From the NCBI GenBank assembly GCA_045133095.1, contig JBGUTP010000016.1:76758-140757 (forward strand): a DNA stretch of 64,000 nt, written 5' to 3'. Under the pieces are notes generated by a model, which did no database searches, was not told where the DNA came from, and saw only the letters and a program-made list of their open reading frames with translations. Position 1 is the stretch's first letter; every line of letters starts with the position of its first letter. The position numbers and the translations under genes are program-made. Shown here one piece after another: positions 23,546 to 25,228 of this stretch. This DNA is from Candidatus Enterousia sp. GTDB taxonomy: Bacteria > Pseudomonadota > Alphaproteobacteria > Rs-D84.

Positions 23546-25228
23546 ATGAAAAAAACAGTTGTTAAGACACATAAAGATTTTACGAATGCATGTTGGGAAG
23601 CAGATGCAAGACCAATCGATTGGATTTTAGCACCCGATTTTGATGCAGAGGTTATGACAGGTGCGATGAATGGTAATGATGAGTTTAAGGTATGGGGCGC
23701 ACTTGTTCAAAATACCTGGAAAAGTATGTCGGCAAAAGAGCAGAAAAACTTTATAAATTACATATTGGATTTATTAAGAGCCGCACGTGCAGGGTATGGA
23801 TATGATAAACACAAGGTGGCACGTGTATTGGAATTTATGGGTGGTGTAATGCAAAATAATGGCGAATTCTTTAAGCATATAACCCCAGATAATCAGGTGT
23901 TTGTAAATCATACTTTGCGCGTCGCAGGTTATAAAACAAAACTGAAATATAATTTTTCAGGGGCAAGACTTACAGATAAAGAATTAGCATGGTCGGAATT
24001 AGTCGGTTCAAAAGATGAACAACTGCAGAAAAAATATAACGAAGATTTAGGTAAAGTCGAAGTCAAACCAGAAGAATTATTTAAAGGTGCAACAAATCCA
24101 CAGTATCTGTACAATATGAGAATCGGGTTGTTGTCGCCTCAATCTGCGCTGATTAGAATGTCGCAGAAAGATATGCAATTTATTGTACCAAGTCAGGATT
24201 TTAAAAATTTAGAACCTGATATGTTGTATTCCATTATGACAGACAGTAACTATAGTTGGAATGGATGGCAGGTGCGGTCTATGATGGAAATGATTGTCGA
24301 TAAAGCACCGGAAAATGATACAAAGTTCCTTTATGAAGTAATGCAAATTATTAATGCAAATGGGAATGTGTTCCTGACGGAAAATGAAGATAACTATAAA
24401 TTATGGCTGAAAATCGACCAAAAATATGGCGCCATGATTAAGGCAGGTAAAGAAGATTTTGCGCAGGTAAAAGCACGAATTGATGAAATAAAGGCAAATC
24501 AAAAACAAAATAATAATGATTTGAATAAGGTAAAAGAAAAATTCGATTATATCGATAGTGAATTAAGAAAATGGGATTCTTATGAAAGAAGCGCGGATGC
24601 ATTGAAAAAAACTAAGGTAAAGGCAGATGCAGAGGCTGTGTTACAGGAAATTCGTGAATTTCGTATAAGTGGACAGGTAACACAGGATTTAAAACAGCCA
24701 CAAAAAACATGGAAAATTTTTGCAACGTCAAATGAAAAATCAGATTATGAAAAAATCTGTGCGCTGGTTAATGATGTTAAAGATTTTCAAAAAATGTCCA
24801 TAGAAAAACGAATGGAACTGTTTGGTAAACATAAATTCGACTTGTGGAGAATGTATGATGAACTTTATGCAAAAAAGCGAAAGTTGGAAGACCTGCAGCA
24901 GGAATTTGGTGATGAAATATATAGACAGGAATCACGCAGGCTGAGGTCAAATAGAAGTGAAATTATTGCATCAGATAATATAGACAAACAAAAAGATGCA
25001 AAAAGTAAAAGAATCGATAAGGCAAGAGAAAAACTGAAAGAAAAGGGAGTTGTGCTGGGGCAGAAAAGTGGTGTGGTTAAAGTTGATAAAATAGTAGAAA
25101 TTCGGGAATATGAAAGAGCATTGAAAAAAAAGATTGATGAAATACGTGCCATGCCAGGCAATAAAGGTAAAAGTAGTAGAGAAATTGAAATTATAGCAAT
25201 TAAGGCGTTGAAAAATAAACAAATGTAA
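23546..25228 (+). CDS. Large K/E-rich coiled-coil protein of unknown function (candidate secreted effector)
   Basis: A 561-aa protein with no signal peptide. Its C-terminal 250 aa is lysine/glutamate-rich coiled-coil. Start MKKTVVK has GGAGGG 5 nt upstream. Confidence 0.4.
   Translation: MKKTVVKTHKDFTNACWEADARPIDWILAPDFDAEVMTGAMNGNDEFKVWGALVQNTWKSMSAKEQKNFINYILDLLRAARAGYGYDKHKVARVLEFMGGVMQNNGEFFKHITPDNQVFVNHTLRVAGYKTKLKYNFSGARLTDKELAWSELVGSKDEQLQKKYNEDLGKVEVKPEELFKGATNPQYLYNMRIGLLSPQSALIRMSQKDMQFIVPSQDFKNLEPDMLYSIMTDSNYSWNGWQVRSMMEMIVDKAPENDTKFLYEVMQIINANGNVFLTENEDNYKLWLKIDQKYGAMIKAGKEDFAQVKARIDEIKANQKQNNNDLNKVKEKFDYIDSELRKWDSYERSADALKKTKVKADAEAVLQEIREFRISGQVTQDLKQPQKTWKIFATSNEKSDYEKICALVNDVKDFQKMSIEKRMELFGKHKFDLWRMYDELYAKKRKLEDLQQEFGDEIYRQESRRLRSNRSEIIASDNIDKQKDAKSKRIDKAREKLKEKGVVLGQKSGVVKVDKIVEIREYERALKKKIDEIRAMPGNKGKSSREIEIIAIKALKNKQM

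Follow-up and report, generated by a model that had tools for sequence, protein, structure and literature searches.

A fast-evolving orphan protein family near virB genes in the gut alphaproteobacterial order Rs-D84 and its possible role at the partner-cell interface

Comparison with described systems

In Rickettsiales, the scattered VirB-type (rvh) type IV secretion system (T4SS) has as substrates AnkA and Ats-1 of Anaplasma, and RalF and Risk1 of Rickettsia. Here we analyze a protein-coding gene (23546..25228, + strand) in a stretch of 64,000 nucleotides from Candidatus Enterousia sp. (assembly GCA_045133095.1, contig JBGUTP010000016.1, positions 76,758 to 140,757 of the forward strand; hereafter, the window). 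An initial annotation, made from the sequence alone, had proposed the product as a candidate secreted effector encoded next to T4SS genes. The setting resembles that of the rvh substrates: the genome is alphaproteobacterial and reduced, vir genes lie amid housekeeping genes, and the orphan protein has a basic C-terminus and apparently its own transcription unit. Unlike those substrates, it has no recognisable ankyrin, Sec7 or other eukaryote-like domain, and its C-terminal charge is unexceptional. The closest known systems also include coiled-coil-rich T4SS effectors (LidA, LFAT1 and LepB of Legionella) and alpha-solenoid scaffolds (NOT1 SHD, MA3/MIF4G, HEAT/ARM and PPR). With crescentin, Ccrp and DivIVA-like cytoskeletal proteins, the protein shares long helices, high charge and one heptad-periodic segment; unlike them, it is for more than half of its length a predicted globular helical domain, its helices are broken by linear motifs, and ~70 residues are coiled-coil-like.

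Enterousia belongs to the order Rs-D84, gut bacteria with genomes <1 Mb from which most biosynthesis is missing, and for which a dependence on partner cells has been proposed (PMC12306168). Its members occur widely in animal guts and are predicted to live at the expense of other cells, with neither the partner nor an interaction factor known (PMC12306168). We found no literature linking Enterousia or Rs-D84 to type IV secretion. Our favoured reading, to which we assign a probability of roughly one in three, is that the protein is a soluble, non-enzymatic binding or scaffold protein of Rs-D84 that is exported and acts at the interface with a partner or host cell, a T4SS being the likeliest route. 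The protein would then be a concrete candidate interaction factor, through which the partner of these bacteria might be traced, because it combines clade-wide conservation, strong predicted expression signals, fast evolution and a strain-variable, recognition-like domain. At present this is a well-described orphan family and not a demonstrated mechanism; the features most worth following are the strain-level mosaic in the N-terminal domain (N-domain) and the invariant C-terminal motifs.

Lineage restriction, predicted architecture and divergence

We searched for relatives of the protein at several levels. A word-indexed search returned five clusters (90% identity level), at 99, 86, 85, 31 and 31% identity, and a second one, with a 14-sequence profile, returned the same five proteins only. 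An exhaustive profile search of 1.84 billion representative proteins gave 11 matches at E<1e-30 and 15 at E<1e-3; the family thus counts ~11 clusters at the 50% identity level and E<1e-30. All members come from metagenomes or metagenome-assembled genomes (MAGs), and the named sources are 'MAG: Alphaproteobacteria bacterium KA0040-166' and 'Candidatus Enterousia sp.'. A remote member, P0016, recorded as 'hypothetical protein [Rickettsiales bacterium]', was aligned by hhalign with a probability of 99.1% over 414 columns. Where the source is named, the family appears to be restricted to the order Rs-D84, that is, to the reduced-genome gut Alphaproteobacteria comprising Ca. Enterousia and relatives.

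Consistent with the initial annotation, in which no family could be assigned to the protein, we found no family match in Pfam (searched with the single sequence and with all 14 members), NCBIfam, PHROGs, PADLOC or a PDB profile search. Below threshold there was coiled-coil noise (Spectrin_5, 13.6 bits; Rad50, 16 bits; spike HR1, E=0.19). A Foldseek search of the PDB with the full AlphaFold2 (AF2) model gave nothing at E<0.001, and a pattern scan of metagenome contigs gave no relative. A mobile-element origin was rejected after tblastn searches of plasmids and phages without any match. We also looked, in the family and 1.84-billion-protein searches, for a housekeeping homologue such as a chromosome-partition or cytoskeletal protein, which would point away from an effector, and found none. 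No eukaryotic-type domain (Ank, Sec7, F-box etc.) was recognised; nor did we find the BID four-helix-bundle domain with positively charged tail of Bartonella Beps and alphaproteobacterial relaxases. The family appears to be unannotated and without detectable relatives, yet of a familiar kind: an orphan helical possible effector in a reduced-genome alphaproteobacterium.

Several more specific identities were considered and discarded. The Rad50 match lies far below the NCBIfam cutoff of 700 bits and reflects coiled coil only, and the conserved columns contain no P-loop; an ABC-type ATPase head whose Walker motifs flank the coiled coil, as in SMC/Rad50-type chromosome proteins, was therefore not recognised. 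The stretch KGVVLGQKS does not fit the Walker A pattern GxxxxGK[ST] by eye. The segments PDNQV and YNFSG resemble the GLMQ and AYNxG motifs of SLT/VirB1-like proteins only superficially, and the invariant Glu, a signal peptide and a Pfam SLT match are all absent. The PDFD motif is not a glycosyltransferase DxD, as it lies in an all-alpha model and its second Asp varies among members. Among the invariant residues of the 14-member alignment we saw no catalytic motif, whether of a nuclease, an ATPase or another enzyme.

The intact open reading frame (ORF) encodes 560 amino acids (aa) followed by a stop codon; the length of 561 aa given initially had counted the stop. A Kyte-Doolittle scan of the product revealed neither a signal peptide nor a transmembrane segment (mean hydropathy of the first 25 residues, -0.8; highest 19-residue window, 0.73), so the absence of a signal peptide noted earlier is confirmed and extends to membrane segments. 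At full length, AF2 predicted an all-alpha protein (predicted local distance difference test, pLDDT, 74.6; predicted template modelling score, pTM, 0.37). Its N-domain, residues 1-292 (23546..24421, +), consists in the model of ~19 short helices in a solenoid-like arrangement; predicted alone from 13 sequences, it is compact and all-alpha with a pLDDT of 85, in line with the globular N-terminal region of about 300 aa suspected beforehand and here placed at ~290 aa. Invariant in this domain are D31 (PDFD), PDNQV 114-118, YNFS 135-138, R192, W238, Q242 and N283.

Residues 281-353 (24386..24604, +) form a single predicted helix of 73 residues, besides which the model contains four other long helices. 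In a crude, home-made Fourier test, heptad periodicity was significant in this segment alone (power at period 3.5, p=0.006); the five later helices gave p=0.07-0.68, among them helix 433-472 (p=0.19), which holds the stretch quoted in the initial annotation as heptad-like. Mean conservation of residues 293-375 is 0.39, and such poor conservation would be expected of a spacer or coiled coil. Charged residues make up 25.5% of residues 1-290 (net -2) and 42% of residues 291-560 (K 17%, E 9.6%, R 7%, D 8.5%; net +16). The pI of the whole protein is 9.2, and its charged fraction of 33.6% exceeds that of all 51 other ORFs in the window (maximum 31.2%). The earlier picture of a charged C-terminal region with heptads is therefore right about the charge, the heptad signal being significant in helix 281-353 only.

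The C-terminal half is more than low-complexity coil. In the 14-member alignment it contains two conserved modules, residues 376-432 and 481-512 (mean conservation 0.58 and 0.64), separated by poorly conserved helices (0.39 and 0.33). The first module (24671..24841, +) comprises G376, PxKPWK[LI]F at 385-392, E397-K398 (EK..YE), Y401, R422 and FG.H.F at 426-431. The second comprises QK.AK..R followed by KLKEKGVVLGQKSGVV (residues 496-511; 25031..25078, +), the most conserved short motif of the family, in which G505, K507, S508 and V510 are invariant. The model places KLKEKGVVLGQKSGVV in a low-confidence loop between two helices (pLDDT <50 for 468-515). In two members, the homologue at locus L007 and P0014, the motif falls within the final 12-25 residues of the sequence as listed. 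At L007 the homologue has 11 more residues before a stop codon and a terminator, and the P0014 sequence, which may be incomplete, also ends soon after the motif. Taken together, the predictions suggest a three-part build, with a solenoid-like alpha N-domain, a ~70-residue spacer helix and a basic helical C-terminal half with three conserved motifs.

The gene is the fastest-evolving one in the region, its divergence being 2-3 times that of every neighbour, including a surface outer membrane protein (OMP). Its product is 86% identical to the homologue at locus L001, where the neighbours are 96-100% identical. At L006 the identity is 31%, against 64-96% for the neighbours (VirB4 83%, T2SSE 87%, LpxC 75%, OMP 64%), and at L007 it is 28%, against 83% for VirB4 and 93% for YchF.

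Comparison with L001, by DNA identity and synonymous divergence (dS), delimited a mosaic, hypervariable tract covering codons 1 to ~212 (23546..24180, +). The tract begins at the start codon and ends near 24180. Within it, DNA identity drops to 58-80% in blocks, between which one block (23707-23766) is 100% identical; the flanking DNA is 97-100% identical. Across 15 neighbouring genes dS is 0.004-0.057, versus 0.20 for the whole gene (nonsynonymous divergence, dN, 0.083); codons 1 to ~210 account for all of the excess, with windowed dS of 0.34-1.3 and dN/dS of 0.07-0.6. The amino acid differences sit on columns that vary within the family (conservation 0.41 vs 0.56; p=4.6e-5). Because they avoid the conserved columns, both alleles are likely functional variants, and purifying selection appears to be retained on the conserved core.

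Mutagenesis by a diversity-generating retroelement was rejected, since the substitution spectrum of the tract is ordinary (76 transitions and 54 transversions) without A bias, and a template repeat is missing: the window contains no second copy of the tract, and the scanned ORFs include no reverse transcriptase domain. The pattern is one of recombinational exchange of divergent N-domain alleles between otherwise near-identical strains, and the tract distinguishes two allele classes within one species-level population. Alleles are typically exchanged in this way in proteins on which an external agent imposes diversifying or balancing selection. A second, small cluster of differences lies at codons ~513-552 (25081-25200), just past the KLKEKG..GQKSGVV motif; over codons 521-560 there are 9 nonsynonymous and 1 synonymous differences from L001, counts too small for a formal test.

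Export to a partner or a role inside the cell

If the protein is exported, its N-domain would act as a recognition surface on which an external partner exerts diversifying or balancing pressure. The invariant motifs of the C-terminal half would dock the protein to a conserved bacterial component, which may be the export apparatus, a chaperone or an envelope protein. Export could proceed via a VirB-type T4SS, a route that we propose because it needs no N-terminal signal, and of which virB3 and virB4 sit in the same conserved region. The window carries virB3 (19472-19768, +; Pfam VirB3), virB4 (19765-22194, +; Pfam CagE_TrbE_VirB; NCBIfam VirB4_CagE at 368 bits, below the 643-bit cutoff) and orf207 (22206-22829, +), which encodes a protein with a signal peptide and an invariant HExxH motif and has no library match. 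The end of virB4 is 1.35 kb from the start of our gene. The order virB3-virB4-orf20x recurs in the region of the gene in the window and at L001, L005, L006, L007 and L011, which are all the close relatives with enough flanking sequence.

Restriction to reduced-genome bacteria predicted to depend on a partner would fit export to such a partner, as would a soluble protein without a Sec signal, a divergence above that of all neighbours and a mosaic N-terminal allele. The regional synteny with virB3-virB4-orf20x, and the position of the conserved motif within the last 25 residues of the L007 homologue, appear compatible with it. In a bolder version, which we regard as rather improbable, the family would be the first identified translocated VirB-type substrate of Rs-D84 and an order-wide 'core effector', its N-domain swapped to track a variable target in the partner and KLKEKG..GQKSGVV with PxKPWKLF serving as a new docking or secretion signal.

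A number of observations weigh against export. Nothing in the analysis shows secretion; the export reading is plausible and is drawn from sequence. The link to the T4SS is positional only. VirB3 and VirB4 are the only T4SS components recognised in the 64 kb window, where we found neither VirB6, VirB8-11 and VirD4 nor other T4SS genes. The gene is never clearly co-transcribed with the vir genes, even at L007 where it follows orf206. The vir block is inverted and displaced at L011 and separated from the gene by rfb genes at L006, and the remote homologue P0016 lies among housekeeping genes with neither vir nor OMP genes within 10 kb. Conservation across the order, in single copy and at a fixed locus, resembles that of a core cellular protein more than that of a typical accessory effector, and charged helical proteins evolve fast even when cytoplasmic. 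Within this genome the last 20-30 residues are not unusual in charge, and the extreme C-terminus is predicted by AF2 to be helical and not disordered.

In numbers, the net charge is +3 in both the last 20 and the last 30 residues, which 27-29% of the 51 other window proteins equal or exceed, and +6 in the last 50, which 8% reach. The positive sign is kept in all 14 family members, whose net charge ranges from +2 to +6 over the last 30 residues and from +4 to +8 over the last 50. Of the proposed fit to T4SS secretion signals, then, the family-wide positive sign stands, with a size that is unexceptional. The initial annotation was right to place T4SS genes nearby, and virB3 and virB4 are kept regionally, but the gene has its own predicted promoter, the block is displaced in places and no further T4SS gene accompanies it in the window. 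As to whether orthologues are confined to vir-bearing relatives, the close relatives with enough flank do carry the block, and the remote P0016 has no vir gene within 10 kb. The candidate effector itself keeps in its favour the lineage restriction, the missing Sec signal, the rate, the mosaic and the regional vir synteny; the purely positional link, the ordinary charge and the missing eukaryote-like domain count against it.

About equally likely is that the protein is never exported and serves as a cytoplasmic, lineage-specific structural or scaffold protein, for example an organiser of the envelope, pole or division like other coiled-coil-rich proteins of bacteria, its fast divergence reflecting the weak sequence constraint on charged helical proteins and its proximity to vir genes an inherited gene order. 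It would then be one more lineage-specific orphan. Such a role would fit what is seen: in each lineage sampled the gene is core-like, present in single copy at one fixed locus and equipped with its own strong predicted promoter and terminator, and the protein has long helices, one of them heptad-periodic. The housekeeping and envelope surroundings (MreC, PBP2, RodA, LpxK, LpxC and the OMP), the dN/dS <1 in the variable tract and the unexceptional C-terminal charge point in the same direction. However, it is unusual for an internal scaffold to carry a recombinant tract with such sharp bounds, in which dS is 10-30 times the value of the neighbours and around which the region is 97-100% identical. 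The gene also diverges faster than the adjoining surface-exposed OMP and has the lowest GC and GC3 (GC content at third codon positions) in the window, and profile and fold searches found no relationship to any known cytoskeletal family.

Expression signals, neighbouring genes and further observations

The likely functional start is ATG 23546. An in-frame TTG at 23510 also opens the ORF; we ruled it out as a start, because the promoter at 23493-23521 places transcription initiation downstream of it, the -10 element sitting 3' of the TTG, and no signal peptide would be gained. This sigma-70-type promoter (23493..23521, +) consists of TTGAAT, a 17 nt spacer and the extended -10 element TGgTATAAT (23513-23521), matching 10/12 consensus positions plus the TG extension. 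The element TTTTTGTG[GA]TATAAT is kept 5' of the orthologues at L001, L006, L008, L010 and L011, and at L007, an Enterousia locus, it begins right behind the stop codon of orf206. A Shine-Dalgarno sequence, GGAGG (23536..23540, +), can be read 5 nt ahead of the ATG, and purine-rich sequences lie at the equivalent position in the orthologous loci. An intrinsic terminator (25234..25267, +), with a 10-bp GC-rich stem followed by a T run, begins 6 nt past the stop codon, and the L007 homologue has an equivalent hairpin 3' of the gene. Given its own promoter, Shine-Dalgarno sequence and intrinsic terminator, the gene is probably a monocistronic, stand-alone transcription unit, and the same predicted signals suggest strong expression. 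Its GC content (34.7%) and GC3 (29.4%) are the lowest among the 52 genes of the window.

On the upstream side, an OMP gene (22859..23434, -; 191 aa; OMP_b-brl / OmpA-TM-like, Pfam PF13505, E=2e-12) encodes a predicted 8-stranded barrel and is divergent from our gene, ~100-140 bp of intergenic DNA separating the two across loci. It is adjacent and divergent in the window and at L001, L002/3, L004 (partial), L005, L006, L008, L009, L010 and L011. This makes the OMP the most constant, and the only near-constant, adjacent gene: the pair is found in 9/10 loci despite changing outer flanks (rfb, M48 giant protein, vir, radical-SAM, DUF374). Conserved divergent gene pairs often signal co-regulation, and the C-terminal half, with its net charge of +16 and the protein's pI of 9.2, could bind nucleic acid. 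The protein might thus be functionally coupled to the OMP, either as its regulator or as a cytoplasmic or peripheral factor for expression or envelope anchoring of the barrel. We consider this improbable: Pfam and profile searches detected no DNA-binding domain, L007 has the gene without the OMP on its 9.7 kb contig, the size of 560 aa, 290 of them in a solenoid domain, sets the protein apart from known small regulators, and synteny is generally conserved in reduced genomes.

The gene order in the window is YchF(-), SufBD-like, virB3, virB4, orf207, OMP barrel(-), our gene, tRNA-Met(-), DUF374, LpxK, LpxC, orf153, PilO-like, PilP-like, T2SSE-type ATPase, T2SSF-type platform and GyrB, with MreC, PBP2, RodA, TopA and DnaG further upstream. 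L001 and L005 are colinear with it. At L006, orf203 and the OMP are separated by an insertion of rmlABCD and a VirB2-like ORF, and our gene is followed by one of 287 aa; at L009, rml genes precede the OMP and the gene, and DUF374-LpxK-LpxC follow. L008 and L011 carry a 1560-aa M48-domain protein ahead of the OMP, and at L011 virB3-virB4-orf203 is inverted further upstream. L010 has the OMP, the gene and an ASCH-like gene. At L007, virB3-virB4-orf206 is directly followed by the gene, with the OMP absent from the contig. At L012 and L013, the loci of the remote homologue, the gene lies among DNA-repair/replication genes, and neither vir nor OMP genes occur within 10 kb.

Just past the terminator, 25293-25638 holds two tandem units of ~169 nt. 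In each of them the 3'-end sequence of the neighbouring tRNA-Met recurs, along with a small GC hairpin and its T run; the tRNA-Met (25562-25638, -) is the sole intact tRNA recognised there by ARAGORN and Rfam. The units may have been left behind by a duplication or by integration at the tRNA. A cytoplasmic conflict protein of the phage-sensing or abortive-infection type, its variable N-domain recognising a fast-evolving invader protein, would accord with the allelic mosaic of divergent, recognition-domain-like blocks, with the orphan status and with the tRNA-Met and tRNA-end remnants directly downstream, but is very improbable given the lack of any PADLOC or PHROG match, of an enzymatic effector domain or catalytic motif among the invariant residues, and of the patchy distribution of defence islands, the gene being a core gene at a fixed order-wide locus.

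Other lineage-specific genes were seen around these loci. The orf207-type protein (203-207 aa) is always encoded behind virB3-virB4, even in the inverted block (L006 4815-5426, L007 6516-7136, L011 736-1347(-)). Its features are a signal peptide, four invariant cysteines and the likewise invariant motif H-E-[DE]-K-H (HExxH-type), and it may be either a small metalloprotease or a periplasmic component of the T4SS surroundings that has gone unrecognised. In the 31%-identity relatives, an ORF of 121-122 aa lies beside the OMP (L006 8780-9145, L002 829-1197). Its topology, a signal peptide plus two hydrophobic helices, is like that of VirB2/TrbC pilins; it has no Pfam or NCBIfam match and no counterpart in the window. 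Giant proteins (1560 aa, with a paralogue of at least 563 aa) flank the OMP-target pair at L011 (4611-9293 and 11884-13572) and L008 (190-4872). They are absent from the window, carry an N-terminal M48-type HECGHY peptidase motif and show no obvious signal peptide by eye; they may be another effector-like, lineage-specific set. At L012, a 336-aa ORF (8988-9998) lies 2 nt upstream of the gene of the 730-aa remote homologue (10001-12193). Its first ~65 residues are weakly similar to the N-terminus of the family (hhalign probability 58%, 64 aligned columns), and it may be a tandem paralogue.

Elsewhere in the window, the chromosomal lpxC-gyrB interval (29023-33659) contains a cluster related to type IVb (R64 thin-pilus-like) systems, with PilO-like, PilP, GspE/PilB-type ATPase and GspF/PilC-type platform genes, which is kept at L006 with 74-87% identity. 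GC skew is positive in all 2-kb bins but 1-2000 and 6001-8000 and most genes are on the + strand, which suggests that the window is part of a single replichore and represents its leading strand. Finally, a polysaccharide/capsule cluster (45376-50856) includes Caps_synth, three GT2 genes, Stealth and an RgpF-like gene.

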